Positions 3,913 through 64,000 of a DNA stretch of 64,000 bases are shown one piece after another. Position 1 is the first letter of the stretch. Each line of letters begins with the position of its first letter. Under the pieces are notes generated by a model, which saw only the letters and a list, made by a program, of their open reading frames with translations, ran no database searches and had not been told where the DNA came from. The DNA is taken from assembly GCA_038063415.1 (NCBI GenBank), contig JBBTVD010000009.1, positions 15,430 through 79,429 on the forward strand, read 5' to 3'. This DNA comes from Patescibacteria group bacterium (lineage in GTDB: Bacteria; Patescibacteriota; Microgenomatia; Levybacterales; UBA12049). The translations under genes and the position numbers were made by a program.

Positions 3913-4016
3913 ATTCTTCTTGTTTTTACACACAAAATCACACCACCGAAAGAGGCGTGTGATGATGGTTTTGTGCATTTATGTTACTTTTTTTCATAGT
4001 GTTGCAAATAAAATTT

Positions 4017-4077
4017 GTCATTCCTGCGGAAGCAGGAATCCAGAATATTGTGGATCCCGGATCATGTCCGGGATGAC
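4017..4077. repeat. palindromic MITE/REP-like element, subfamily B (GTCATTCCTGC..GCAGGAATC hairpin plus GGATCCCGG..CCGGGATGAC hairpin)
   Basis: Two adjacent stem-loops with GTCAT...ATGAC termini. It is near-identical in architecture to the copy at 20720-20806 and lies 8 bp from the stop of the yerC-like gene. Confidence 0.7.
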
Positions 4078-4084
4078 AGTTAAT

Positions 4085-11666: not shown

Positions 11667-12877
11667 TTACTTTTAACTCGCTTGGTTCCAATTATGATTA
11701 TCAGTTTGCTCGCATGGCAGTATTTGCCCGAAATGAGCAAAAATATAGTGAGCAATTGCAGGAGTATTTACAAAAGAAATATACAGGAGAAGTAGCTCTT
11801 GTGTATAAAGGTCGGGAAGCATTACGACTAGCCCTTCGTCTTATCAAAGATTCTGGGCAAGCCAGAATGACGAAAGAACCTCTTGTTGGTATCTGTGGTT
11901 ATACGTGCTTTGCTGTTTATGATGCCGTAATCAAAGAAGGCTTTGGCGTTACCTATTTGGATATTGATGCCAAAAGTTTACATTTTTCTCTTGCAACGTT
12001 AAAACAAACAGTAAAGGAAAACCCTCAATTAAAAATTCTCATCATTCAAAATACGCTTGGCTATCCATGTGATATGGTAGGTATCCATAAATTTTGTCAG
12101 GAGAAAGGGATTATTCTGATCGAAGACCTTGCACACGCAATAGGTTCAACGTATGCAAACGGCAGGGAAGCGGGGACAGTAGGTGATTTTGTCGCACTCT
12201 CTTTTAGTCAGGATAAAATGATTGATGGCGTTACTGGTGGAGCGCTTGTCGTCAGAAATCAAAAGTATGCCAAGCTTTTGCAGAAAGAAACTTTTGTCAA
12301 AGTAGGGGAGTGGAAACAACTCATTGATCGACTGTATCCACTCTTTACCGTGGCAATACGAAAGACATATGGAGTTGGTTTGGGGAAGATTCTCCATCAT
12401 CTGCTGAGGAAATCAGGTCTTTTGGCGAGGCCAATGGATGAAAGTACCCAGATACAAACACTTTCACCGTGGTACTGTCTCTTGATTTATAGTGCTTTTT
12501 TGGATCTTGAGAGCAATCGGGAACACAGGAGAAAGATAGCAAGGATTTATCGGGAAGTGATTGATTCTCGGATACAGTTACGACTTGCTCTGTCTCGTAG
12601 TGCCAATTTGCGATTTCCTCTTCTGGTTCCACAGCGAGAAAGTCTCATTGCTTACTTAAAAAACTCTGCTGTTTTTGTCTCTGACATTTGGTATGATGCT
12701 CCTATTGGTCCAAAAAAATTCATGCAATGGACCAATTACCAGCAGGGACTCTGTCCAAATGCCGAAAAAATAGCCGACAAGATGGTCAATCTCCCTACAC
12801 ATAAAAATATCTCACAAGCACAGGCCAAACGGATTGCACAGCTTGTAAATAAATGGCTAAAAGCAAATTATGAATAA
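11663..12877 (+). CDS. DegT/DnrJ/EryC1/StrS-family PLP-dependent sugar aminotransferase
   Basis: 404 aa. Block LIEDLAHAIGSTY..G...G..GDFVALSFSQDKMIDGVTGGALVV matches the family core including the PLP-lysine region. Its start overlaps the upstream gene by 4 nt. Confidence 0.7.
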   Translation: MITFNSLGSNYDYQFARMAVFARNEQKYSEQLQEYLQKKYTGEVALVYKGREALRLALRLIKDSGQARMTKEPLVGICGYTCFAVYDAVIKEGFGVTYLDIDAKSLHFSLATLKQTVKENPQLKILIIQNTLGYPCDMVGIHKFCQEKGIILIEDLAHAIGSTYANGREAGTVGDFVALSFSQDKMIDGVTGGALVVRNQKYAKLLQKETFVKVGEWKQLIDRLYPLFTVAIRKTYGVGLGKILHHLLRKSGLLARPMDESTQIQTLSPWYCLLIYSAFLDLESNREHRRKIARIYREVIDSRIQLRLALSRSANLRFPLLVPQRESLIAYLKNSAVFVSDIWYDAPIGPKKFMQWTNYQQGLCPNAEKIADKMVNLPTHKNISQAQAKRIAQLVNKWLKANYE

Positions 12878-16297: not shown

Positions 16298-16300
16298 GCC

Positions 16301-16364
16301 GTCATTCTGGCTCGTCCAGAATCAGTAAAAAGATCCTGGATGCACTTCGCTTACCAGGATGACG
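16301..16364. repeat. palindromic MITE/REP-like element, subfamily A (GTCATTCTGG-loop-CCAGAATC hairpin plus GATCCTGG..CCAGGATGAC hairpin)
   Basis: It starts 4 nt after the pepA stop. Termini are GTCATTCTGG ... CCAGGATGAC. Confidence 0.75.
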
Positions 16365-20697: not shown

Positions 20698-20719
20698 TTA
20701 TTTTCTTTATCTTATTTAT

Positions 20720-20806
20720 GTCATTCCTGCGAAAGCAGGAATCTAGAAATGCCATACTAAATTCATCTCAGGGATATCTGGATTCCCGATCGGGTCGGGA
20801 ATGACA
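20720..20806. repeat. palindromic MITE/REP-like element, subfamily B
   Basis: GTCATTCCTGCGAAAGCAGGAATC hairpin plus GGATTCCCGATCGGGTCGGGAATGACA hairpin. It ends 8 bp from the stop of the TPR gene at 20814. Confidence 0.7.
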
Positions 20807-23872: not shown

Positions 23873-25429
23873 TTAATACAATATCGCTAAGTCATACGGA
23901 GGTTCTCCGTTGGGTTCAGGGGTTGTGTAGATGCCTTCTGGTGACTCAAGTGCGTCCAAAAGCTGAATGTATCTATAAAAAACAGCATTGGTCCAGCCAA
24001 ATCCTTGTTGGTCTTCATATTTTGCATTACTGCCGGAGTGGCCTGTCTCTCCATTTAGTTTCTCAAAGAAGGTTTGATGTTTACGAAAAACGTTGGCATG
24101 GGCTTTAACAGCATTTTGCATAATTCCTTTAGCTTCTTCCATATAGCCGTATTTAAGTAATCCTATGACCGTAAGGTATTCGAGTGGTGACCAGATATTC
24201 GGATAGTCCCATTGTTTTGGCATGATTATTTCTTCAATAGCCGGATGATATCGTTGTTGGATCTTTGACAGATCAATATCATGGGCAAGTGACTCTTTGG
24301 CTCCAATGGTTAGTCCATATGGCGTTACAAACTTATGGAGCTTTTCTACCATTTGTTTTGCTTGATATTTGGTTGCGAGCCCTGCCCACATTGGGACATA
24401 CGAAGCCAGGGAAAAATAATGCCCAATTTTCTTCGCGATATAATTGTAGTCATAAAAGAATGCTTCATTTGGATCCCACATCAGCTTATGCATTTCTTTT
24501 TGACGTTCTCTGGCTTTTTCCTGCCAGTACTCCCCTTCTCTGTCATCTCCAAGTATTTTGGCAGCCAGGGCAAAATCTTTTTCGTATTTATACAAATAAC
24601 TATTGAGATCAATTGGGAAGAACTGATCACAACGGTTGTAAAACCGTGAAGTCATATCCCAACCTGATTCAAGCTCTGAAGAGTGAGCATAGCCAATATC
24701 CCGATCTCCGTAACGAGCCAAAAGAGAATCTTTGACACTGTGGTTATACGCACGAATTTTATCAATCCACACGATTTCATATTCTTTTTTTGCTACTTCC
24801 ATTGCTTTTTTAAGCCAGTTCTTCTTGGTTAAGGTATATAGTTGTCGTCCAATCCCTTTTCGTACATAGTCATTGCTGGAATTCAGTGGTGAAAGATAGG
24901 TGTCAAGGATCATTGAAGAAAAAAATGGAGGCTGAGACCGTCCCATAGATGCAGGGGCGTTAAAGTTAGGAATAATTTGGTACATATGAAAAAGATACAT
25001 AAAGTTCTCTATCATTTCTCGCATGAGCCATTCACGTCGAGTACCCATCAGTCCACGAAACATGAAATAACTATCCCAATAAAAGATATAGGTAAATTTA
25101 TTATCATTCGGGACAAAATAATAATGTGGAAGCTTAATAAAGTTTGGGTTGACATTTACGGTAGTCGTAATTTCTCGTGAGAACTGTAATCTATTGGGAA
25201 TGGTCGCTACTCGATAGCGTAGCTTCATTTTGGAAGGTTTATAAATGATTTTGTTCCAGTAGCTGTCAATGTATGCAAGGCAGTCTGCGTACTCTTTACT
25301 CCACATAAAGTTAGTATAAGATATCTTGGATAAAGTATAAAGCATGAATATTGAAAAAGAACTGAAAGCTGTTGCATCTATGGCATTGTATGTCGTAGAA
25401 TAATGCATGGCTGCCCTATGAAAGATCAA
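23873..25429 (-). CDS. trehalase (glycoside hydrolase family 37)
   Basis: Matches both GH37 signature regions: ...FYWDSYFMFRGL (cf. R-F-x-E-x-Y-x-W-D-x-Y) and PKQWDYPNIWSP (cf. Q-W-D-x-P-x-[GAV]-W-[PAS]-P). The N-terminal start is uncertain and overlaps the divergent xer start region. Confidence 0.65.
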   Translation of the reverse strand: MIFHRAAMHYSTTYNAIDATAFSSFSIFMLYTLSKISYTNFMWSKEYADCLAYIDSYWNKIIYKPSKMKLRYRVATIPNRLQFSREITTTVNVNPNFIKLPHYYFVPNDNKFTYIFYWDSYFMFRGLMGTRREWLMREMIENFMYLFHMYQIIPNFNAPASMGRSQPPFFSSMILDTYLSPLNSSNDYVRKGIGRQLYTLTKKNWLKKAMEVAKKEYEIVWIDKIRAYNHSVKDSLLARYGDRDIGYAHSSELESGWDMTSRFYNRCDQFFPIDLNSYLYKYEKDFALAAKILGDDREGEYWQEKARERQKEMHKLMWDPNEAFFYDYNYIAKKIGHYFSLASYVPMWAGLATKYQAKQMVEKLHKFVTPYGLTIGAKESLAHDIDLSKIQQRYHPAIEEIIMPKQWDYPNIWSPLEYLTVIGLLKYGYMEEAKGIMQNAVKAHANVFRKHQTFFEKLNGETGHSGSNAKYEDQQGFGWTNAVFYRYIQLLDALESPEGIYTTPEPNGEPPYDLAILY

Positions 25430-26356
25430 AAGCTTACTGGACTTATCATTGATTTTCTCGAGTACTTAGAAGTCGAAAAAAATTGTAGTAAGTTAACCCT
25501 TCGGGATTATAAGCATTATCTTGATGTCTTTGTGGAGTGGCACTCCTCTTCCCTACCTGGTAAATCAATTGAAAATCTTACCTTGGTTGATGTTCGCAAG
25601 TTCCGTGTTTACCTGGCTGATTTGACTGATAAAAAAGGCCAAACCCGTAAGAAAGTTACCCAAAATTACTATGTCATTGCGCTTCGGTCGTTTCTTCGGT
25701 TTCTCCTCAAAAACGACTATAGGACTTTGGAGCCTTCCAAGATCGATCTGCCTAAGACAGAAAGTCGTAGCCTCAAATTCCTTGAGCGTGAGCAAGTAGA
25801 TCGCTTGGTAACCATGCCTGATACCTCAAAGGAAGAAGGCATTCGTGATCGGGCGATTCTGGAGCTGCTTTTTTCAACAGGGCTTCGTGTCTCTGAATTG
25901 GTAAGCCTGAACCATCAGCAACTTAATCTAGAAAGACGTGAATTTGGGATTATTGGCAAAGGCAGACGTTCCAGAATTGTCTTTATCTCAGATCGAGCTG
26001 CTGAATGGATTCAAAGATATCTTGATGCTCGGATCGATGTCTTTAAGCCGCTTTTTATCCGATACTCAGGCCAAGTGATGGAAGAAGATGAAGGTGAGAA
26101 GATGCGTCTGACAGTACGAAGCATTGAGCGAATTGTAAAAAAATATACGGAGCTTGCTCGGCTTCCTGTGGATGCTACGGTGCATACGCTACGACATAGC
26201 TTCGCGACAGATCTACTTACCAATGGTGCTGATTTACGATCAGTACAGGAAATGCTCGGACACAAGAATATCGCGACAACGCAGATTTATACGCATATCA
26301 CGAACAAACAGCTTAGAGAAGTACACAAGGCTTTTCATAGTGGAAATAAGGAATAA
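25403..26356 (+). CDS. tyrosine site-specific recombinase (XerC/XerD-like)
   Basis: 317 aa. N-terminal SAM-like core-binding domain, and a C-terminal catalytic domain with R..(LRVSEL), HTLRHSFAT, and LGH...TTQIYTH containing the catalytic Tyr. Confidence 0.8.
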   Translation: MHGCPMKDQKLTGLIIDFLEYLEVEKNCSKLTLRDYKHYLDVFVEWHSSSLPGKSIENLTLVDVRKFRVYLADLTDKKGQTRKKVTQNYYVIALRSFLRFLLKNDYRTLEPSKIDLPKTESRSLKFLEREQVDRLVTMPDTSKEEGIRDRAILELLFSTGLRVSELVSLNHQQLNLERREFGIIGKGRRSRIVFISDRAAEWIQRYLDARIDVFKPLFIRYSGQVMEEDEGEKMRLTVRSIERIVKKYTELARLPVDATVHTLRHSFATDLLTNGADLRSVQEMLGHKNIATTQIYTHITNKQLREVHKAFHSGNKE

Positions 26357-28200: not shown

Positions 28201-28220
28201 TTTAGAAATCGCAAGAAACT

Positions 28221-28249
28221 GGATTCCTGGTTTACCGCCAGGAATGACA
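28221..28249. repeat. partial palindromic element (single hairpin GGATTCCTGG-TTTA-CCGCCAGGAATGACA), subfamily B half-copy
   Basis: One stem-loop carrying the ...GGAATGACA terminus, between the stops of convergent genes. Confidence 0.5.
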
Positions 28250-32093: not shown

Positions 32094-32978
32094 TTATCGA
32101 TAGTTATTTATAGTATCTCGTAATTGTGTTGCTTCTTCCCTGGCTTTTTCTGCAAAATCTTGTCCGCTTGAGGCAAAAAGAATACTTCGTGATGCATTAA
32201 TCATCATTCCACGCTTCTTGGTATTTAATCCTGCTTTGACTGTAGCTTCTGTATCTCCACCTTGTGAGCCAATTCCTGGAACAAGTAGTACCATGTCTCC
32301 AACGATCTTGCGAATTTCAGTAAGCTGTGCAGGATACGTCGCCCCCATAAAGATCATCGTATTTGGATAGCCTCCCTGTTGTTGCATGAGTTCTTGTGCG
32401 ACGAGTTCATAGAGTGGCTTTATTTTGTCATGCTGAATTTGTTTCAGCATCTCTTCTCTTGTTTGCTTGGGATCCTGAAATGAATTCAGGATGACATACT
32501 GTTCCTGAAATTCTTTGGCTTCTGGGTTTGAAGAGTGACAACCGACAATAATTCCTTTATCTTTATAGGCAAAATAAGCGCTTAGTGATCCAATTCCCAT
32601 ATACGGCATGACTGTCAAAGCATCAGCTTGAAGATAGTCAAAGATATACTGGGCATAGCCTTTGTTGGTATTACCTATGTCTCCACGTTTGGCATCAATG
32701 ATAACAGGAATCTCTGGATACTTCTCCTTGATATAATCGCAGGTCATTTTGAGCTCTCGCACTCCTCTATCCCCGCGTGATTCGTAAAAGGCGGGATTTG
32801 GTTTATATACACAGGCCAAATCATGCGTGGCGTCAATAATTGCTTTATTAAATTCAAACTGTGGGTATCCTTTTTCTTTAAGAAAATCTGGGAGTTTGTC
32901 AAAATCGGGATCAAGGCCGACACACAGGAGAGAATTATTTTTATCAACAGCGGCGTTTAGTTTGTCATGAAAGGACAT
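32094..32978 (-). CDS. pyrF: orotidine-5-prime-phosphate decarboxylase (type 2, long form)
   Basis: LLCVGLDP and IIDAKRGDIGNT are the type-2 OMPDC signature blocks. The start is taken at MSFHDK (32978), directly after the upstream HAD gene stop; the track ORF extends further into that gene. Confidence 0.8.
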   Translation of the reverse strand: MSFHDKLNAAVDKNNSLLCVGLDPDFDKLPDFLKEKGYPQFEFNKAIIDATHDLACVYKPNPAFYESRGDRGVRELKMTCDYIKEKYPEIPVIIDAKRGDIGNTNKGYAQYIFDYLQADALTVMPYMGIGSLSAYFAYKDKGIIVGCHSSNPEAKEFQEQYVILNSFQDPKQTREEMLKQIQHDKIKPLYELVAQELMQQQGGYPNTMIFMGATYPAQLTEIRKIVGDMVLLVPGIGSQGGDTEATVKAGLNTKKRGMMINASRSILFASSGQDFAEKAREEATQLRDTINNYR

Positions 32979-32982
32979 AGTG

Positions 32983-33624
32983 TTAGAGGTATTGTAACAA
33001 ATCTTTGACGTTTTTGACAATGTGCGTTGGCTTTGCTTTACTGATTTCATCCTCTGCCCCGTAGCCATAATATACTCCTACTGAGTCAATAGCATTTGCT
33101 TGTGCTCCGAAGATATCGTGTTTCCTGTCCCCTATCATGACAAAGGAATATTTTGGTTGGTCAGGAAAAAGAGCTAACGCTTCGGCTACGAGGTCTGTTT
33201 TGTCGGCATTGGAGAGATCGGGCTGTGAGCCGACGACTTTTTCAAAAAATGTATCCAACCCGTGGTGTTGCACAATCTTCTCTGCAATCCAGGTTGGTTT
33301 TGAAGTGACTACGAGAAGTCTGTTCCCTGATTGTTGGAGATTGGTGAGAACAGCAATGATATCAGGATATACGGTACTCTCATACATTCCAGTCGGGTGA
33401 AAATATTCTCGATAATGGAGCACTCCTTCCATCGCCTTTTCCTCGCTAAATCCATAATACTCTTGAAATGATTTATGGAGGGGTGGGCCGATAAATTTGA
33501 GAAGATTTTCAGTGTCTTCTTCAATTCCCATTCTTTTCAAAGCGTGCTGGGCAGCTTTGGTTATGCCAATTTTGGGATCAATGAGTGTCCCGTCAAGGTC
33601 AAAAAAGATAATTGGATAGGCCAT
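32983..33624 (-). CDS. HAD-superfamily hydrolase (phosphatase, subfamily IA)
   Basis: 213 aa. Motif I FFDLDGTLID; motif II (LVVTSK); motif IV (IGDRKHDIFGA). Confidence 0.8.
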   Translation of the reverse strand: MAYPIIFFDLDGTLIDPKIGITKAAQHALKRMGIEEDTENLLKFIGPPLHKSFQEYYGFSEEKAMEGVLHYREYFHPTGMYESTVYPDIIAVLTNLQQSGNRLLVVTSKPTWIAEKIVQHHGLDTFFEKVVGSQPDLSNADKTDLVAEALALFPDQPKYSFVMIGDRKHDIFGAQANAIDSVGVYYGYGAEDEISKAKPTHIVKNVKDLLQYL

Positions 33625-35209: not shown

Positions 35210-35245
35210 GATTTAAGTATAGCAGGTTTATCTGAAGTTTGATCC

Positions 35246-35324
35246 GTCATGCTGGCTCATCCAGCATCTCTTATTGATTCTGGATGCACGCTCCGTCAGT
35301 TGTCGGATCGCTTACCAGAATGAC
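35246..35324. repeat. palindromic MITE/REP-like element (GTCATGCTGG..CCAGCATC hairpin plus GATTCTGG..CCAGAATGAC hairpin), subfamily A variant
   Basis: It lies between the aspartase stop (35340) and the EamA-like gene start. Confidence 0.7.
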
Positions 35325-35339
35325 GGTTATGAGTTAGAG

Positions 35340-36650
35340 TCAGTTTGGTCGAGTTATTTCCTCAAAGTTTTCCTCGGTGAGGAGCTTTTTGGCAAGTACA
35401 ATCTCTCGGAAAGACTTCTGCTCTGCAACTGCTTCTTTGACAATCTTACTTACGGTGTCATAGCCAAGTTGCGGAGAGAAAAGGGTTGCATAGGTTGTCG
35501 AATTCTCCAGAAGCTCTTCACAGCGTTTTTCGTTTGGTTTGAGATATTGAATACAATGGGTTGCAAAGACAAAAAGTCCTGAAGAACTCATCTTGAGCAT
35601 CGTAATCATGGCCTCGGACATAACTGGGAACATCAGCGAAAGCTCAAGGTATGAGTTTGTTGCTGCTTGATGAATGGTCAGATTCTTCCCCATGATATCG
35701 TAGGCAATTTGATTCATTGATTCTGGAATAATTGGGTTTACTTTCCCCGGCATTATAGAAGAACCAGGTTGCAGCTCTTTGAGTGAGATCTCCCCTATTC
35801 CACCATACGGACCACTCGCAAGGAAACGAAGATCATTAGCAATCTTATTGATATCCGTAAAGAGGATATTGAGTACTGCGCTCAATTGGCAGAAATCGGA
35901 CGAGCTACTTGTCTGGGACATCATATTCTTTGCTCGTTTGATTGGGAGGTTTGTAATTCGTTGCAACTCTTGGTATGTATGTTGCATATAAGCTTCTGAT
36001 GCATTAACACTATTACCAATTGCTGTCCCTCCAAGACTGAGATCATAGAGATAGTTTTGTGCTTCTTTAATTCTCTTTTTATTTCTCTTCAGAATATCTC
36101 GATACGAAGCGCATTCTGCACCAATAGTCGTCGGAACGGCGTCTTGAAGATGGGTTCGGCCAATCTTACGAACATGTTTATACTTTTTTGCTTTATCATC
36201 AAAGGCGGTAATTACATAGTCTAAGCTCGTAAGAACTTCTTGAGTAAGTCTAATACAGACAATTTTAAGCGCTGTCGGATTTACGTCGTTGGTAGATTGT
36301 CCCATATTTACTTCATCGTTGGCATGAATTTTATGTCCATTAGCGTGAATCTCAGTAGCACGAACAGCAATGACTTCGTTGACGTTCATATGGATTGAGG
36401 TGCCTGCTCCCCCCTGAATCGCGCAGGTGACAAATTGCTCGTCAAACTTGCCAGCAATGATTTCATCGGCTGCTTGGACAATTGCCTGTGCGTACGGTTT
36501 TGGTAATTCTCCAGCTTTATAATGCCCAATTGCTGTAGCTTTTTTTACCTCCGCAATGCCATAGATAAGTTCAAGATGGACTTTGTTGGCAGGAAAAGGG
36601 AAGTTCCTGATTGCTGCTTCTGTTTTTTTACCGTAATAGATTTTTTTCAT
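35340..36650 (-). CDS. aspA: aspartate ammonia-lyase (fumarase/aspartase class II family)
   Basis: Has the family signature GSSIMPGKVNP. The N-terminal block QGGAGTSIHMNVNEVIA matches the aspartase QGGAGTSVNMNTNEV block better than the fumarase QTGSGTQSNMN block. Confidence 0.65.
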   Translation of the reverse strand: MKKIYYGKKTEAAIRNFPFPANKVHLELIYGIAEVKKATAIGHYKAGELPKPYAQAIVQAADEIIAGKFDEQFVTCAIQGGAGTSIHMNVNEVIAVRATEIHANGHKIHANDEVNMGQSTNDVNPTALKIVCIRLTQEVLTSLDYVITAFDDKAKKYKHVRKIGRTHLQDAVPTTIGAECASYRDILKRNKKRIKEAQNYLYDLSLGGTAIGNSVNASEAYMQHTYQELQRITNLPIKRAKNMMSQTSSSSDFCQLSAVLNILFTDINKIANDLRFLASGPYGGIGEISLKELQPGSSIMPGKVNPIIPESMNQIAYDIMGKNLTIHQAATNSYLELSLMFPVMSEAMITMLKMSSSGLFVFATHCIQYLKPNEKRCEELLENSTTYATLFSPQLGYDTVSKIVKEAVAEQKSFREIVLAKKLLTEENFEEITRPN

Positions 36651-36677
36651 TGTTTTTACATTTTGTCTTAAGCTCTC

Positions 36678-36760
36678 GTCATTCTGGCTTGTCCACTCCG
36701 ATTTAATCGGAGTCCAGAATCAAATGTGATCCTGGATGCGTTTCACTTACCAGGATGACG
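36678..36760. repeat. palindromic MITE/REP-like element, subfamily A
   Basis: GTCATTCTGGC..GTCCAGAATC plus GATCCTGGATGCG..CCAGGATGACG, upstream of the aspA start. Confidence 0.75.
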
Positions 36761-36944
36761 TTATCATATTGAACTGTACCAGAAGTAATATTGTCAAATC
36801 TTGAAAATATACATAAATGTCAGTCAAAAGTTTTGTTTGTGAGATATAATGTTTAGCGAGGACCTCTTTGTCTTTGCTCTTCAGCGATGAAGGAGAATAA
36901 AAGCATTATAGACAGAATGAAAAACGGTTGTCAAGCTCTTTATA

Positions 36945-37020
36945 CGTCATTGCGAGGAGGGTTATGCGACGAAGCAATCTTATGAGATCGCCACAACTAC
37001 TTCGTAGTCTCGCGATGACG
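36945..37020. repeat. palindromic element variant with termini CGTCATTGCGAG ... CTCGCGATGACG, overlapping the 3-prime end and stop codon of the DHOD-like gene
   Basis: Imperfect 12-bp terminal inverted repeats share CGTCAT/ATGACG ends with the main family. The gene's last codons (..KRHRETTK) and TAG stop lie inside the element. Confidence 0.55.
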
Positions 37021-38088
37021 TTTTTCTTTTATTTCCTGTGCTAGGAAGGGATTCCACATAGCGCCAGTTGCACTTAGGACAGCATCTGCACCTGCTTCTT
37101 TGTATTCATTGTAATCTTCTGGAGTCGTTACTCCCCCCACGCCTTCGATAGAAAAAGAGTAGCCTTTCTTTTCTCGAATAGTTCTGAGACGTTTGACTGT
37201 ATCAATACCTGCCCATTTGATGGGAGCACCACAGACGCCGCCTTTTGCTCGATTTTTACCAGGGAGTGCTTGTTCACCTTTTTCATTCACGATAATGCCA
37301 GGAAGTGTGTTGATTGCTACAATACCATCGGCATATTCATTGGTGATTGCTGCAATCTTTTCAAGCTGCTGCTGATCTTCATAGTATCCAACCTTTAGAA
37401 GAAACGGTGTGTTGTCACTAACCGCACGTACGCTTTTGCAAATTCTTTCCGTAACAGCAATGTTGTAACATACAAGTCCTTCATCACCATTGTTGGGGCA
37501 TGAGATATCCGCTTCGAGGATTTTTGCGCCGGTTTCTTTTACTTGTTTGGCTACAACTGCCCAGTCCTCAATAAATTCTTGTTGGGTTTGATTGGGGCGT
37601 ACAGTTCCGACAAAACTTCCAACCATTATTTGCCCTTTGCCAGCATAAGAAATTGCCTTCTTCATATCTTCTTGCCAGAATTCAGGTTTTCTTGATGGGA
37701 TATTAAAAGAATTGGTAATCGCGATTGGCTCCTGAAAGCGATCATCCCCGAGTAGTGGCTCTTGCAGTTTCTTTAGCGTCAGATCGCCCTCTACATGTAC
37801 AGAAAGCACATTGGGGAAAGGATGGCAGGGGTAGGTATCGCTACGGACTGTTTTGTACACACAGATATCAAAACCTTTTTCAAAAGCAGCTTTTGCATAC
37901 TTGCTATTGAGCAGGGGGCCTGCCGGTATACCAAAGGGAAGATATACTTTGTGTCCATGATATTCGTATTGTGGTTCTCCTTCTTGTGCATATACTTTCC
38001 CATCAGTAAAGGCTCCAAATGGTCCCTGGTCATAGTTGTCTTCGTAAGATTTTAGTGGATCGTAGAATGGAGTAATAAGCTTTTTCAT
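36997..38088 (-). CDS. dihydroorotate dehydrogenase-family flavoprotein (class 1-like TIM barrel)
   Basis: 363 aa. Blocks ...ISCPN..., ...LLKVG..., and INTLPG...G..GAP.K..GI fit the DHOD/DHPD-like family. It neighbours pyrimidine genes. Confidence 0.55.
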   Translation of the reverse strand: MKKLITPFYDPLKSYEDNYDQGPFGAFTDGKVYAQEGEPQYEYHGHKVYLPFGIPAGPLLNSKYAKAAFEKGFDICVYKTVRSDTYPCHPFPNVLSVHVEGDLTLKKLQEPLLGDDRFQEPIAITNSFNIPSRKPEFWQEDMKKAISYAGKGQIMVGSFVGTVRPNQTQQEFIEDWAVVAKQVKETGAKILEADISCPNNGDEGLVCYNIAVTERICKSVRAVSDNTPFLLKVGYYEDQQQLEKIAAITNEYADGIVAINTLPGIIVNEKGEQALPGKNRAKGGVCGAPIKWAGIDTVKRLRTIREKKGYSFSIEGVGGVTTPEDYNEYKEAGADAVLSATGAMWNPFLAQEIKEKRHRETTK

Positions 38089-49744: not shown

Positions 49745-50677
49745 TTATTTTAGAGTTTGCTTCTCCGCTGCAGTAATCAGGTTGTCCATAAGCATTGCTA
49801 CATTAACCGGTCCAGTACCCCCTGGAGTGGGTGTATAAAAGCCTGCAAGGTCTGCAATCTCTTCTTCCTCATAATCTCCAAATAAGTTCCCTTGATCGTT
49901 CTTATCGACTCCTACGCCGATCAGGATTACCCCTTTCCTGATGTTGTCAGCTGTGATGACGCGATGTTTGCCAACGGCCGCGATGATAACATCTGCTTGT
50001 TTGGTTAGGGTGTATGGATCTTTTGTTTTACTATCAACGATCTCTGGGGTTATACCAAGTTGTTTGAGGTAAGAAATGATAGGTCCTCCTCCTGATGGTC
50101 CCTTGCCGATGATGACGATTTTTTGCGTTTTTAGCCACATTAGAAATCCATCGGGGGCCTGCCTCTCGCTTCCCCGTCCGACGGCTTCACTCACGTCATT
50201 CGTTCCAGGCGCTCGACGGGGATCCCCTGCTCGCGTCACTCCTTGCTTTTGTGTATAAACTTCCTCCAATATCTTAACCACGGCCGGGGCAAGTGGGAGT
50301 ACAAAGGGAGATTCCGGATGGAAGCCGTCTACGTCTTTTTGTGGAGCCGTTGCAAGCTCAAGCTGTTTTTCATCAATATGCTTAGGTAGTGGCCGTTGGA
50401 TGAGTATCCCGTGGACGAATGGATCTTGATTAAGCAGAAGCACTTTTTGTCGTAACTCTTCTGTCAAGACCGACTCCTCAAATCTTAGGATAGTAACTTT
50501 TGCACCAATCAGATCAGCCTTTTTTTGCTTGAGCGTGACATAGGCTACTGAAGCTGGATTATTACCAATCAGAAAAACAACTAAATGCGGTGTTATCTTT
50601 TTCCGTTGCAGCTTAAGGACTCTTTTTGTAAGGTCAGTATAGAGCTGGTCAGCGATTGCGCGGCCGTCGAGTTTCAT
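49745..50677 (-). CDS. folD: bifunctional methylenetetrahydrofolate dehydrogenase/cyclohydrolase FolD, carrying an approx 35-codon GC-rich in-frame insertion
   Basis: FolD blocks LVVFLIGNNPASVAYV, VDGFHP, IIGKGP.GGGP, and PGGTGPVNVAML. The start is taken at MKLDGRAIA (50677). The insertion (about 50123-50239) sits between the YTQKQG and KIVIIGKG blocks. Confidence 0.8.
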   Translation of the reverse strand: MKLDGRAIADQLYTDLTKRVLKLQRKKITPHLVVFLIGNNPASVAYVTLKQKKADLIGAKVTILRFEESVLTEELRQKVLLLNQDPFVHGILIQRPLPKHIDEKQLELATAPQKDVDGFHPESPFVLPLAPAVVKILEEVYTQKQGVTRAGDPRRAPGTNDVSEAVGRGSERQAPDGFLMWLKTQKIVIIGKGPSGGGPIISYLKQLGITPEIVDSKTKDPYTLTKQADVIIAAVGKHRVITADNIRKGVILIGVGVDKNDQGNLFGDYEEEEIADLAGFYTPTPGGTGPVNVAMLMDNLITAAEKQTLK

Positions 50678-50705
50678 GTAACTTTCTGTAGCATAGCATA
50701 CATGG

Positions 50706-53273
50706 TTATGCCTGCTCAACTGCTTCGCCAACACAAGTGACGGCAGCTACACTATCTTTTTCATGGGAAAATCGCATCAGGATAACACCTTGTGTGTCTC
50801 GAGAAAGTTTTGGAATTTGTGTAATCAAGAGCTTTACGATTTGTCCGCGTCTTGAGGTAATGATAACTTCTTCACTTCCTGCAGGAATGACTTGTGCATT
50901 CACAACCTTGCCTGTACGATCAGTGACTCGTGCTACTTTGACACCTTGTCCTCCCCTGCCCTGTAGTGGGAATTGCTCAATTGGGGTTTTCTTACCCAGA
51001 CCGTTTTGCATAATCACAAAGACGTCAGCCTTGTCTCCTTTTGTAATGACATCCATACCAATCACTCGATCTGTTGCATCAATTTTAATCCCTCGGACAC
51101 CCATGGTTGGACGGCCCATTGGACGGACTGAGTCTTCTGAGAACTTGATTGACTTACCTTGTTTGGTTACAAGCAAAATTTGATTCTTCCCATCGGAGAT
51201 ATTGCTCCAGACGAGTTCATCACCTGGATCGAGTTTAATCGCGATCATCCCATTGCGGCGGATGTTTTCAAATTCACTAATACTTGTCTTTTTGACTGTA
51301 CCTTTTCGAGTGGTGAGAAAGATATAGCCGTCTTTACCCTTTGTGCTGTAAATAACGAACGATTCAACAACTTCGCCAGATTCAATATTAAGGAGGTTTA
51401 CAATAGCAGTTCCTTTACTCGTTCTACTACTTTCAGCAATTTCATAAGCTTTGAGTGCATAGGCTTTACCCTTGTTGGTAAAGAAGATGATATTGTCATG
51501 TGTCTGCGCATAGCGGATGGCTGCGATATCATCTGCTTCTTTGAGACTCATACCAGTAATCCCCTTGCCTCCACGATGTTGTGTATGGAAACTATTGATT
51601 GATTGACGCTTAATATAGCCTGTCTTGGTCAAGGTAATAACGGTTGCTTCATTTGGGATAAGATCTTCTTCTGAGAACTCCCCTACTTTACCTTTGTACA
51701 CAACGGTCCTGCGAGGATCAGCATATTTTTCTTTGAGTTTACTGAGCTCCGCTTTGATAACACCCAAGATTTTTTCAGGGTGTGCGAGTAAGTCTTCAAG
51801 GTATTCGATGGTTTCTTTTACCATCTTGAGTTCGTCTTCAATCTTTTGTCTTTCAAGCGCAGCCAGCCTTCGAAGCTGCATATCAAGGATTGCTACTGAT
51901 TGAATCTCACTCAAGGCGAATTTCGCCATCAAATTAGTTTTGGCCTCTTCCTGATTTTTTGATGCGCGGATAGTTGCGATGACTGCGTCGATATTGTCGA
52001 CCGCAATCTTAAGACCTTCCAAGATATGCAAACGAGCCTTTGCTTGCTTAAGTTCAAATTCAGTACGTCTCCGAACAACACTGTATCGATGTTTGAGATA
52101 TTCCTCAAGGATAATCTTCAGGTTTACCGTCTGAGGGGTTCCATTTACTAGTGCAACCATATTGACTGGGAAAGACGTTTGTAATTGGGTTAATTTATAG
52201 AGATTGTTGAGAACCTTTTTGGGAGAGGCATCTCTCTTGAGTTCTATATAGATATGCATACCACGACGGTCTGATTCGTCACGGAGGTCTGAAATGCCTT
52301 CAATTTTTTTATCTTTGGCAAGATCCGCAATCTTGGCAATCAGGAGTGCTTTGTTTACCTGATACGGCAGCTCTGTGACTGAAATAGCCGATTTACCATT
52401 ATTGATTTCCTCAATTTCTGCTTTTGCGCGGATAATAATCTTGCCGCGCCCAGTCATATAAGCATTTTTAATTTCTGAAAGATCATAGATTGAGCCGGCT
52501 GTTGGGAAGTCAGGTCCATTGACAAACTCAAGCAGTTCATCAATGGTAATAGCTGATGTGTCAAATACTTCACCAGAGTTTACTGGTACGACTGGAGCTT
52601 TTGGATCGGCAGCTGCAAGTTCTGCCGCTTTTTTCTCGGCTTCCTTTTGGGCTGCGGTGATCTTTCCGATCATAAAGGTAATTGCATCAACAACTTCTGA
52701 CAAATTATGTGGAGGAATCTTGGTTGCCATACCGACTGCAATACCTTCGGCTCCCATCAGCAGCAGGTTGGGAAGTTTTGCAGGTAAGAACAGTGGTTCG
52801 TCACGTGAGGCATCATAGTTTGGTCCAAAATCAACCGTTTCCTTTTCAATATCTACCATGAGCTCTGAAGTAATAGCAGCCATTCTTGATTCGGTATAAC
52901 GCATAGCCGCTGGTGGATCACCATCAACTGAACCGAAGTTACCCTGTCCATCGATCAGTGGGTATCGCATTGAAAAGTCCTGTGCAAGTCTGACGAGTGA
53001 ATCATAAATTGCTGAGTCACCATGTGGATGGTATTTACCCATAACTTCTCCTACAACCGTCGCACTTTTTTTATACTTTGCTGTATGAATGAGACCAAGT
53101 TCGTGCATCGCATAGAGAATGCGTCGGTGAACAGGTTTGAGTCCGTCACGGATATCAGGGAGTGCACGAGAGACAATAACAGACATCGCATAATTCAAAT
53201 ACGATTTCTTCATCTCTTCGGTAATGTTGGTTACCTGTAGTTTGCCAATGTTGTTGTCCATTATATTATCCAT
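50706..53273 (-). CDS. gyrA: DNA gyrase subunit A
   Basis: 855 aa. [36 protein letters not shown], and the C-terminal beta-pinwheel repeats. Confidence 0.95.
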
Positions 53274-53312
53274 AATAAAAGTATATTAATTATATAACAT
53301 CATCCAGTTTAG

Positions 53313-53352
53313 AGATCCTGGAGTCCTTCCTTCAGTCGTCCCCAGGATGACG
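53313..53352. repeat. partial palindromic element (hairpin GATCCTGGAGTCC..CCCCAGGATGACG)
   Basis: A half-copy immediately upstream of a full copy; it shares the CCAGGATGACG terminus. Confidence 0.5.
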
Positions 53353-53369
53353 ATATTATTTCTTTATCC

Positions 53370-53439
53370 GTCATTCTGGCAAATGAACAAAGTTCATGCG
53401 TCCAGAATCAGCAATCGTCTTCGGCTTACCAGAATGACG
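53370..53439. repeat. palindromic MITE/REP-like element, subfamily A
   Basis: GTCATTCTGGC..GTCCAGAATC plus ..CTTACCAGAATGACG. It ends 6 bp from the ppa stop. Confidence 0.75.
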
Positions 53440-59939: not shown

Positions 59940-61274
59940 TTACTCATAAAACTTTTTATGTTTTACTTTCTCTGGTAGAAAAGATTGTTCCTCTTTGGGC
60001 CCTACATACTTATCTGACCAGGTATATTCTTTAGCATAGCCCAGGTTCTTCATTAACTTCGTTGGAGCATTGCGGAGGTGCAACGGTATGGGTTCATTTG
60101 GGAATTCATAGACTGCTTGCTTGGCTCTGCCGAGTGCATTGGTTACTGCTCGAGACTTCTTGGCACTTGCGAGATAGACAACCACATGAGCGAGAGTGAG
60201 TTGTGCCTCAGGCATACCGATTTTGGTTACAGCTTCAAATGCCTGGTTTGCTTGAATAAGAGCTCCCCTGTCTGCCATGCCGATATCCTCTGAAGCAAAG
60301 ATTATCATACGTCTGGCGATAAACTTGGGATCTTCGCCATTTTCAAGCATGCGGGCGAGATAGTAGAGTGCAGCATCGACAGCACTTCCCCGCATCGATT
60401 TGATAAATGCACTGGTGATGTTGTAATGCTCATCTGCTTTTTTATCATAGAGTCCTGCTGATTTGGTCTGAAAGATTTCTTGAATGATTTCCACAGAAAT
60501 AACGTCATTGCGAGACTTCGAAGAAGTCGTGGCAATCTTTTTTGTATGAGATTGCTTCTCTACGCTCGCAATGACGAGAGCAGTTGTTGCAGCCATCTCA
60601 AGACCGTTGAGCATAATTCGAGCGTCACCCCCAGAGAGTCGGATAAGTAATTCTTTTGCATCAGGGGTGATGGTTTTTTTGTACTTCCCTATCCCCCGCT
60701 CTTTGTCGACAAGTGCCCGATCAATAATCTTGCCAAGGTTCGTAGGTGTAAGACTCTGGAGGACAAAAACCCGACAGCGAGAAAGAAGCGCACTAATCAC
60801 TTCAAAGGAAGGATTTTCAGTAGTCGCTCCAATGAGGATAAGGGTACCATTCTCTACATATGGCAAGAGTGTATCTTGTTGCGCTTTATTCCAGCGATGA
60901 ATTTCATCAAGGAAGAGAATAGTCATTCTGACTTGTCCAGCATCTTTTCTTGATTCTGGAGTCCTCACTTTGTTCGTCCCCAGAATGACGTTTGCTTTTG
61001 TTGCTCTTTTGTTCTCCTCCGCCTCGCGAATAATCTTCATCAGATCTGCTTTGCCTGTCTCAACAGCTGAGAGATGATGAAAATCGGCTCGTGCTGCCTG
61101 TGCAATCAGATTTGCGAGTGTTGTTTTGCCACTTCCTGGTGGTCCCCAAAAGATCATTGATGAGATGTTTCCCGTCTCAAGCATCTTTTGCAGCAGTTTA
61201 TTTTTGCCGACGAGATGCTCCTGTCCGATGTATTCTTCGAGTGTCTGTGGCCGCATTCGGTACGCGAGGTTCAT
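59940..61274 (-). CDS. rarA: replication-associated recombination protein A (RarA/MgsA AAA+ ATPase), carrying an in-frame palindromic-element insertion
   Basis: Walker A GPPGSGKTT, Walker B ILFLDEIHRW, sensor-1 GATTENP, arginine finger SRCRVF, and the C-terminal MgsA domain. About 20 extra residues (..NVILGTNKVRTPESRKDAGQV..) lie between the IREA helix and Walker B relative to E. coli RarA. Confidence 0.85.
   Translation of the reverse strand: MNLAYRMRPQTLEEYIGQEHLVGKNKLLQKMLETGNISSMIFWGPPGSGKTTLANLIAQAARADFHHLSAVETGKADLMKIIREAEENKRATKANVILGTNKVRTPESRKDAGQVRMTILFLDEIHRWNKAQQDTLLPYVENGTLILIGATTENPSFEVISALLSRCRVFVLQSLTPTNLGKIIDRALVDKERGIGKYKKTITPDAKELLIRLSGGDARIMLNGLEMAATTALVIASVEKQSHTKKIATTSSKSRNDVISVEIIQEIFQTKSAGLYDKKADEHYNITSAFIKSMRGSAVDAALYYLARMLENGEDPKFIARRMIIFASEDIGMADRGALIQANQAFEAVTKIGMPEAQLTLAHVVVYLASAKKSRAVTNALGRAKQAVYEFPNEPIPLHLRNAPTKLMKNLGYAKEYTWSDKYVGPKEEQSFLPEKVKHKKFYE
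60923..60990. repeat. palindromic MITE/REP-like element (subfamily A) located inside the rarA coding sequence, in-frame
   Basis: GTCATTCTGACTTGTCCAGCATC..GATTCTGGAGTCC..CCCCAGAATGACG. It contains a 43-bp segment identical to the holB copy. Confidence 0.75.
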
Positions 61275-63445: not shown

Positions 63446-64000
63446 TTATACTTGACTCGTGGCAAGGGAAAGTAACGTTTGTTCAATAGCAAATCGTGCA
63501 TTAACGTTGGTTGTCTTTATGGTTGTATGTAGCTCTTGGAAAGAACGCAAATATTCCGTCATTCTGGCAAGCGAAGCGCGTCCAGAATCCGTTATCGTTT
63601 GAGATTCTGGAGTCCTCACTTTGTTCGTCCCCAGAATGACGTTTGTTACCATCTCTTCTCGCATAATTCGGATCATACTGGCGATCCACGTGAGTGCTTT
63701 TTCTTTATCTTTTGCAAGGAGCTCTGCCTTTTTGAGCCGTTCCCCGATCGGCATGGTTGGTAGGCGTTCAAAAAACTCTTGAAAATCTTGTCGTTTTTTA
63801 TCAGTGAGCTTTTTTATCACCTCTGGAATAACGATCAGCTGACAGCGAGAAAGAATAGTCGGCAAAAAAGCTTCTTTTGAATCTGCGCTCAGTATCAGAT
63901 ACGTATGTTCTGGTGGCTCCTCAAGTACTTTTAGGAGGGCATTTTGTGCTTCACGGGTCAACAGTTGTGCATCATCAAGGACAATTGCTTTTTGTTTGCC
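63446..64000 (-). CDS. holB: DNA polymerase III delta-prime subunit (HolB-like clamp-loader subunit), N-terminus beyond the window end; carries an in-frame palindromic-element insertion
   Basis: AQNALLKVLEEPPEHTYLIL...LPTILSRCQ is the clamp-loader delta-prime/tau sensor-2 block. The reading frame is open to the window edge, and the peptide TNVILGTNKVRTPESQTITDSGRASLARMTE is encoded by the repeat element. Confidence 0.6.
   Translation of the reverse strand, partial: GKQKAIVLDDAQLLTREAQNALLKVLEEPPEHTYLILSADSKEAFLPTILSRCQLIVIPEVIKKLTDKKRQDFQEFFERLPTMPIGERLKKAELLAKDKEKALTWIASMIRIMREEMVTNVILGTNKVRTPESQTITDSGRASLARMTEYLRSFQELHTTIKTTNVNARFAIEQTLLSLATSQV
63558..63641. repeat. palindromic MITE/REP-like element (subfamily A) inside the holB coding sequence, in-frame
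   Basis: GTCATTCTGGCAAGCGAAGCGCGTCCAGAATC plus GATTCTGGAGTCC..CCCCAGAATGACG. The 43-bp block 63603-63645 is identical to 60952-60994. Confidence 0.75.

Follow-up and report, generated by a model that had tools for sequence, protein, structure and literature searches.

How does a gene for a pyrimidine-biosynthetic enzyme come to end inside a palindromic repeat? The question is raised by a dihydroorotate dehydrogenase (DHOD)-like, pyrD-type gene in a 64-kb stretch of DNA from a Patescibacteria group bacterium (the whole of this stretch is called the window below), the last codons and stop codon of which lie within a 76-nt palindromic element at positions 36945-37020, here called element A. A first-pass annotation, made from the letters alone, had placed an element with just these ends over the gene's 3' end and had let the reading frame terminate inside it, and on both points the sequence is as claimed. 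We argue that element A is very probably a head-to-head dimer of two CGTC-tagged repetitive extragenic palindromes (REPs), non-autonomous and probably selfish, that has come to lie in the last codons of the pyrD-like gene. The features on which this argument draws are as follows.

36945-37020, no strand assigned: element A, a GCGAG-type REP dimer (sequence, arms, fold and unit anatomy)
36984-37020, minus strand: gene-proximal REP unit, on the mRNA strand CGTC ATCGC gagactacgaagtagttgtg GCGAT ctc
36945-36981, plus strand: distal REP unit, CGTC ATTGC gaggagggttatgcgacgaa GCAAT ctt
36997-38088, minus strand: DHOD-like (pyrD-type) gene, 363 residues (Pfam DHO_dh, E = 3.3e-19; pyrimidine-biosynthesis neighbourhood)
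37000-37020, minus strand: seven REP-coded C-terminal codons, RHRETTK (translation; tail in 0 of 119 orthologs)
36997-36999, minus strand: TAG stop codon from the REP loop (sequence)
36940-36942, minus strand: candidate displaced original stop TAA (in frame only after removal of 76 + 2 nt; speculative)
36905-36934, minus strand: perfect sigma-70-type promoter, TTGACA-18-TATAAT (12 of 12 consensus positions), 10 nt downstream of element A and facing the aspartase gene

Element A is made of 37 + 2 + 37 nt. Its ends, CGTCATTGCGAG at 36945-36956 and CTCGCGATGACG at 37009-37020, are separated by 52 nt and complementary at 11 of 12 positions (12 of 13 when the flanking A/T is counted), and the two halves share one anatomy: an unpaired CGTC is followed by a 5-bp stem that closes a loop of 20 nt, and the tail after it has C as its first base. 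The two units point their tags outward and are of what we call the GCGAG type; the motif GACGAAGCAATC of the distal unit agrees with a consensus found across phyla. The TAG stop codon sits in the loop of the gene-proximal unit, within a small ACTAC-gaa-GTAGT hairpin. The stem of this unit, ATCGC/GCGAT, differs by a compensatory T>C / A>G pair from the ATTGC/GCAAT that the three remaining GCGAG-type units have, position 3 of the stem shows changes of this kind in further units of the window too (ATT/AAT, ATC/GAT, ATG/CAT), and the long-range pairing of the outer arms of element A contains a C.A mismatch on the mRNA strand; the conserved structure is thus the unit hairpin and not a "terminal inverted repeat". 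Correction of quasi-palindromes during replication could yield compensatory stem changes as well as selection could. The ends had at first been called terminal inverted repeats (TIRs), but ends of a transposon they are not: each consists of the CGTC tag and the stem of one of two REP units in inverted orientation, no target-site duplication flanks the dimers examined, and the ORFs searched in the window include no transposase.

Taken by itself, an inverted repeat of 12 nt with a single mismatch could arise by chance in 64 kb, for which 26 pairs of inverted repeats of at least 11 nt were listed. We count element A as real because the 12-mer (at most one mismatch) occurs four times in the window as two convergent pairs, 36945/37009 and 60503/60565, where by our own estimate about 0.3 would be expected by chance for the pattern; because units consisting of a YGTC tag and an AT-stem hairpin number 23 in the window, as compared with a mean of 2.35 and a maximum of 6 in 100 shuffles; because the element folds at -29.5 kcal/mol (z = -4.7), none of 200 shuffles being as stable; and because its exact termini recur in other genomes and in viral contigs.

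The reading frame of the DHOD-like gene terminates ...AQEIKEK-RHRETTK-TAG (WNPFLAQEIKEK RHRETTK TAG), and element A has its boundary, 37020, on the base with which the arginine codon CGT begins. Of the roughly eight codons (KRHRETTK) and the stop first ascribed to the element, seven codons and the TAG are indeed its own, while the lysine lies outside. The proposal that the tail is derived from the element stands up to comparison with orthologs, for which we assembled 120 proteins (the query and 119 others), compared their tails, built a neighbour-joining tree and applied Fitch parsimony. These genes adjoin carB, pyrC, pyrF and pyrE; their conserved sequence ends ...WNP(F/Y)LAQEIK, REP-free members mostly carry three to five residues beyond EIK, typically K-x-L, and none of the 119 others ends in RHRETTK, the tail whose presence in element-free orthologs would, by the first-pass annotation, have spoken against the proposal. 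The match to class-1 DHOD in the PDB stops at residue 356, i.e. at EIKEK. Since this match ends there and the ortholog tails after EIK are short and variable, the exchange of the C-terminus was probably neutral for the enzyme. For an original stop codon downstream of the element there is a possible candidate: deletion of exactly 76 nt gives EIKEKYKELDNRFSFCL*, without a nearby stop, whereas EIKEK-TAA results when two flanking nt are deleted along with the 76, the TAA being that of 36940-36942.

REP-like tails are found in 17 of the 120 orthologs including the query (about 14%). The 16 others lie at the same junction and represent the same repeat translated in another frame or arrangement (SSLRETK, SSLRA, LSLRGIK, QLVISSE etc.), and DNA from eight REP-tail loci (L001, L071, L201, L202, L203, L204, L205 and L207) confirms their repeat origin. 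A single unit, t followed by CGTCATTGCGAG..GAAGCAATC, starts 1 nt after the EIK codon in L201, L202, L203, L207 and L001 and supplies the stop in its loop; L071 has a full dimer starting at the same point, and L204 and L205 have degenerate versions. Element A starts 7 nt after EIK, turns the other arm type toward the gene and is a dimer. On the tree, the REP-like state requires at least 14 changes from a REP-free root, and among the four relatives with a protein identity of about 80% no two have the junction in the same state. When 80 metagenomic loci chosen without bias (about 350 kb) were matched to the 12-mer, allowing one mismatch, there were four hits, two of them at the pyrD junction. 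Judged by these comparisons, the pyrD gene end is a hotspot with fast turnover of REPs. At least two independent events are likely to have taken place there, independent gain and retention with loss not being fully separable.

Most REPs belong to one of two superfamilies, GTAG- or CGTC-tagged (Di Nocera, De Gregorio & Rocco 2013, BMC Genomics 14:522, PMC3733652). According to that paper, CGTC REPs have an unpaired CGTC or TGTC tag (variant CCTC), stems that begin with AT and short tails with the consensus CCA; they are mostly "HH" dimers with the tags outside, foldable as one long or two short hairpins, they prefer places close to where the upstream open reading frame (ORF) ends, some being within 20 bp of its 3' end, occasional copies are in-frame inside genes, notably those for replication and repair, and they have no dedicated transposase. 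The elements of the window share the CGTC/TGTC tag, the AT-start stem, the outward-tag dimers with both ways of folding, the placement at 3' ends and, as far as the ORFs searched go, the lack of an associated transposase. Of the published behavior, the proximity to ORF 3' ends, the stop supplied by a REP (the termini of GTAG-tagged REPs are described there as often providing the TAG stop of flanking ORFs) and the in-frame copies in replication and repair genes all recur. The hosts are there chiefly Alphaproteobacteria, plus four other phyla, and the present host, a metagenome-assembled genome (MAG) labelled Patescibacteria, does not figure among the lineages named in the sections consulted. 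The window differs further in its high density (about 14 elements per 64 kb) and in that about a third of the copies lie inside ORFs.

Through the same source the repeats can be connected to the Rickettsia palindromic elements (RPEs), since CGTC-1 and CGTC-4 are there equated with RPE-6 and RPE-4 of R. conorii (dRS3 of Neisseria being CGTC REPs as well) and encoded peptides are shared. Its supplementary table lists REP-coded peptides such as VIPAKAGI, SFPRKRES and DSRFRGND (PMC3733652), and the REP peptides of RarA orthologs (VIPAKAGIQ..., ...GMT, ...RND) match the listed R. conorii CGTC-1 peptides VIPAKAGI and DSRFRGND. Common to both are in-frame palindromes in housekeeping genes, the peptides VIPAKAGI and ...FRGND, and some positions at extreme C-termini, where several R. 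conorii REP peptides are found (e.g. residues 232-240 of the 242 of RC0483; PMC3733652). By contrast, classic RPE-1 is about 150 bp long and unrelated in sequence, the present host is not Rickettsia, and RPEs are read through whereas element A stops translation.

In species-representative genomes, at least 120 stretches contain the exact GCGAG termini around an interior of 40-70 nt, and the hosts among the matches listed include Bradyrhizobium, sphingomonads, Rickettsiales/Tisiphia, Coxiellaceae, Legionellales, Pedobacter/Bacteroidales (Bacteroidota), Anaerolineae and Margulisiibacteriota, with the common consensus CGTCATTGCGAG..GAAGCAATCC-loop-GGATTGCTTC..CTCGCAATGACG. Among IMG/VR viral contigs the termini are present in 89 stretches (loci L208-L287 included), some contigs having three copies; the CCAGAAT type, the second repeat type of the window, had no match in these contigs. 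The gene for GMP synthase in an unrelated MAG of low GC content, with the label Gammaproteobacteria, includes a GCGAG-type dimer in-frame (L103:4465-4544), which encodes VIARPRSGAAIS...EIASEGAPRND. Counts of "in-frame" copies from GC-rich genomes were left out, long spurious ORFs being common there. A literature search for the literal element sequences returned unrelated primers only.

Several points weigh against our reading of element A. An empty-site allele of the DHOD-like gene was sought and none was found, the next relative after a match at 100% being 80% identical; the insertion thus rests on comparison at 80% identity or less, and the TAA at 36940-36942 is at most suggestive of a displaced original stop. 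With stems of 5 bp and loops of 12-20 nt, the GCGAG-type units depart from the 8-9-bp stems and 4-5-nt loops of the four CGTC families defined in Table 1 of PMC3733652, a paper that mentions unusual loops only for some REPs of Bradyrhizobium, K. olearia and M. prima and allows for undetected classes; for this misfit we place element A in the superfamily and not in a named family. The host label is the NCBI name of the MAG, "Patescibacteria group bacterium", and is taken as given; some close relatives of the RarA protein of the window are labelled Levybacteria or Patescibacteria. Finally, the single units at the pyrD stop in L201, L202 and L203 (at 1508, 2324 and 2152, respectively) are nearly identical (CGTCATTGCGAGAAACGAAGTGACGAAGCAATC), and the proteins that they terminate are 67-75% identical to the query and stand apart on the tree. 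These units are either recent parallel insertions or under selection, and in the latter case their near-identity could mean selection for a function at the junction, not selfish turnover.

This last point favors an explanation in which element A has a conserved cis-regulatory function, as RNA or as DNA, at the pyrD 3' junction (for instance that of a terminator, an insulator, a processing site or a translational brake), goes back to the ancestor of the clade and is kept by selection, its coding overlap being incidental. Such an element would also account for a junction that is occupied in 17 of 120 orthologs and mostly from exactly 1 nt after the EIK codon, and for a stable hairpin with a strong promoter directly after it, and there is the precedent of E. 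coli REPs near stop codons that modulate translation (PMC12306157). We nevertheless consider it improbable, because 86% of the orthologs have no REP and the inferred root is REP-free, because the window copy is a dimer, has a different arm type and sits at +7 instead of +1, because the same repeats are found at unrelated sites, inside ORFs and across phyla, and because there is no U-tract, no called terminator and no Rfam match, searches at gathering and at permissive thresholds giving only noise at element A. An intrinsic terminator in particular was rejected, given that the hairpin of the mRNA strand is followed by TATAAAGAGC, with no U-tract, and that none was called at the site.

More improbable still is a classical miniature inverted-repeat transposable element (MITE), that is, a deletion derivative of a DDE-type insertion sequence (IS) with 12-nt TIRs that is moved in trans by the IS transposase. 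Element A is short, belongs to a multi-copy family and has inverted repeats at its ends, and overlap with gene 3' ends and extension of ORFs are known for QMITE1 and QMITE2 of Coxiella burnetii (Wachter et al. 2018, PMC5896051), small repeats that cover the last 1-50 bp of genes and, in one copy of QMITE2, provide the C-terminal 33 residues of EnhC. QMITEs, however, are 190-400 bp long, have TIRs and direct repeats, are unrelated in sequence and have been described only from C. burnetii (QMITE1 had no BLASTn matches in other genomes; PMC5896051). None of the nine dimers examined here is flanked by a direct repeat of the kind left by target-site duplication; of the 75 ORFs of at least 110 residues in the 64 kb of the window, about 55 (nearly all of the non-overlapping ones) were searched and yielded neither Y1_Tnp nor any other transposase; and no transposase family recurred near 126 copies in 120 other genomic loci, the clusters there being common families only (ABC transporters, response regulators, SDR, LysR). 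What would be the TIR is, moreover, a 4-nt tag plus a self-pairing hairpin unit that is also found singly, which is unexpected for a MITE. A MITE defined by TIRs and target-site duplication was rejected for the lack of duplication and for these single units. Comparable, too, are the REPINs (Bertels & Rainey 2011, PMC3116915), which also consist of two inverted REPs forming a hairpin and leave no target duplication, and the singletons of the window resemble decayed or partial copies; but REPINs carry a GTAG (or GTGG) tag and are mobilised by a REP-associated tyrosine transposase (RAYT, of the Y1 HUH type) encoded by a single-copy, REP-flanked gene, whereas the tags here are CGTC/TGTC and CGTC REPs have no known RAYT, nor was one found among the ORFs searched in the 64-kb window.

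If element A is a CGTC REP dimer, as we favor, its history could be pictured as follows. A dimer would have come to lie after ...EIKEK in the pyrD-like gene, and translation now runs seven codons into the first REP unit (RHRETTK) and stops at the TAG in its loop. On the transcript a stable stem-loop can form right at the stop codon. It may delay termination and reduce translation, if the analogy holds with E. coli REPs at most 15 nt from a stop codon, for which ribosome stalling and less translation of the upstream gene are described (reference 17 of PMC12306157, as cited there). Like these, element A forms a stable hairpin at or just after a stop codon; E. coli REPs differ in belonging to the GTAG superfamily and in lying downstream of the stop instead of containing it. 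The hairpin may also protect the 3' end of the mRNA and separate pyrD from the strong downstream promoter. By this analogy an effect of element A on termination, translation and 3'-end stability is plausible.

That the pyrD junction is a hotspot may be due to a tendency of REPs to settle beside A/T-rich sequence, such as lysine codons and TAA stops, and to the tolerance of gene ends and surface loops for them. The 10 nt outside 25 tags of the window are A/T-rich (A or T in 23 of 25 at -3 and in 21 of 25 at -2, and G in none of 25 at -1; background A+T 0.59), the pyrD junction is AAA-rich and adjoins TAA/TAG, and the RarA hotspots take the place of Lys/Asn-rich stretches (KEKK, HNKN) of REP-free orthologs. 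The first-pass annotation had proposed that the family targets sequence close to stop codons, which goes too far and is borne out in part only. In support of this, element A overlaps a stop and five elements lie 2, 6, 7, 14 and about 20 nt downstream of one; against it, genes harbor five in-frame copies (two in RarA and one each in pyrF, a pol III delta'-like ORF and a DegT-like ORF), two are just upstream of gene starts, both adjoining other REPs, and one is in a long spacer (4016-4078). In a compact genome, 3'-end proximity can arise from a preference for A/T-rich flanks together with selection against disruption of promoters and ORFs. Such a preference, combined with selection against damage to promoters and protein cores, would produce the observed pattern with no recognition of stop codons, and it accounts for the placement equally well as stop-codon targeting.

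The window contains about 14 elements, of which 11 are dimers with the tags outward and three are singletons or partial copies. They fall into three sequence types: GCGAG (elements A and B), CCAGAAT (at 16300, 35245, 36677, 53369, 60921 and 63557, and the singleton at 11847) and the CGTC-1-like ATTCCYG type (at 4016 and 20719, and the singleton at 28220); the rest are the dimer at 32426 and the partial element near 53300. The elements other than A are listed here.

60503-60576, no strand assigned: element B, second GCGAG-type dimer, with perfect 12-nt arms; in-frame in RarA/MgsA, encoding LVIASVEKQSHTKKIATTSSKSRND
60921-60990, no strand assigned: CCAGAAT-type dimer, in-frame in RarA (NVILGTNKVRTPESRKDAGQVRMT), directly before the Walker-B motif TILFLDE
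63557-63641, no strand assigned: CCAGAAT-type dimer, in-frame in the DNA pol III delta'-like ORF
32426-32496, no strand assigned: TGTC-tagged dimer, in-frame in the orotidine monophosphate (OMP) decarboxylase (pyrF) ORF
11847-11872, minus strand: single CGTC unit, in-frame in the DegT-like aminotransferase ORF
16300-16364, no strand assigned: CCAGAAT-type dimer, beginning 2 nt past the M17 aminopeptidase stop
20719-20806, no strand assigned: CGTC-1-like dimer, TGTC ATTCCTGC gaaa GCAGGAAT, with 8-bp stems and 4/5-nt loops, ending 7 nt from a TPR ORF stop
35245-35325, no strand assigned: CCAGAAT-type dimer, with its end 14 nt past the stop of the aspartase gene
36677-36760, no strand assigned: CCAGAAT-type dimer, 26 nt upstream of the aspartase start
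53369-53439, no strand assigned: CCAGAAT-type dimer, with its end 6 nt past the stop of the pyrophosphatase gene
about 53300-53352: partial element beside the dimer at 53369-53439
4016-4078, no strand assigned: CGTC-1-like dimer, in a long spacer
28220-28249, minus strand: single TGTC unit, flanked by convergent ORFs whose stops are both about 20 nt away

The tag is CGTC or TGTC in 24 of the 25 cases tabulated in the window (AGTC in the remaining one), and in all units the stem starts with AT right after it. The tails are ctt or ctc in elements A and B and cca, cta or cag elsewhere, only the C of the first position being conserved. The dimers at 20719-20806 and 4016-4078 have 8-bp stems and 4-5-nt loops, and some CCAGAAT-type units have 7-bp stems and 5-nt loops. 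The arm order of element B is opposite to that of element A. All six CCAGAAT-type heterodimers share their plus-strand arm order whatever the orientation of the gene (post-hoc p of about 0.03), and the cumulative GC skew rises over most of the window; the uniform order could reflect strand-specific, replication-linked insertion.

The internal dimers at 32426-32496, 60503-60576, 60921-60990 and 63557-63641 are all entered in the same frame, xxC GTC ATT, which reads "V-I", and the distal terminus AA TGA CG has a stop in one exit frame. The read-through copies are 70, 71, 74 and 85 nt long; as none of these lengths is divisible by 3, the frame of the host gene must be restored by one or two extra or lost bases. 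The pyrF ORF with its dimer has 324 residues, as compared with 272-282 in relatives; within it, at 32896-33020, lies an inverted repeat that is not of the CGTC type, TTGTCAAAATCG / CGTTTTTGACAA, 101 nt apart. In RarA (59940-61274), both in-frame dimer sites are insertion hotspots across 120 orthologs (modal length 398-400 residues) and hold, in many of these, one of at least five REP peptide families (VIPAKAGIQ..GMT, VIAS..KQS..RND, VIPSEVKRSR.., SSSERSESRS.. and ARNAS..DAGG). The pol III delta'-like ORF (63446-63961) matches only positions 113-159 of the profile, at its N-terminus, so that upstream of 63961 there may be a split or a frameshift in the gene. In FolD (49745-50734, 329 residues), about 64 residues that separate the two domains are unmatched and could represent a further insertion.

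Next to pyrD, the aspartase gene (35340-36650) lies between the pyrD-like gene and an EamA gene that are adjacent in the relatives L001, L205 and L207, and it is bracketed by two CCAGAAT-type dimers of the same orientation plus element A (35245-37020). The gene next downstream of pyrD varies in every relative examined (EamA, a 276-residue ORF, HAD, OMP decarboxylase, a 130-residue ORF). These arrangements hint that REPs mark or mediate gene insertion at the aspartase locus. The bracketing palindromes, together with a tyrosine recombinase gene at 25403-26356, made us consider an integron attC-like site, the core motifs of which are RYYYAAC/GTTRRRY. This candidate was rejected, such cores being absent from the termini and the recombinase being XerC/D-like.

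A broader reading, which we offer tentatively and regard as rather doubtful as a whole, would be that CGTC REPs turn over actively in small Patescibacteria-labelled genomes without a dedicated transposase, landing repeatedly beside short A/T-rich motifs, and that in doing so they re-colonise gene ends and Lys/Asn-rich surface loops (the pyrD C-terminus, two loops of RarA), rewrite C-termini and loops of housekeeping proteins within short times, mark or mediate gene insertion and perhaps travel with phages. Phage carriage between hosts is suggested as possible by the 89 viral-contig stretches with the GCGAG type.

Taken together, the locus presents a known kind of element that behaves in a published way, and what is new is the host lineage and the notable density. 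The "protein-coding palindrome" phenomenon, best known in Rickettsia, is hereby extended to a genome that is streamlined and bears the label Patescibacteria. In annotation, the tails RHRETTK, SSLRETK and SSLRA and the inserts VIAS...RND and VIPAKAGIQ...GMT, as well as others like them, are to be regarded as repeat-derived and not as conserved features of the proteins, and gene callers will misplace stops around them. How REPs without a transposase choose their sites could be studied conveniently at the end of pyrD, which is occupied in 17 of 120 orthologs and has seen at least 14 gains or losses, and this hotspot bears on the question of how CGTC REPs move, which Di Nocera et al. (PMC3733652) left open.

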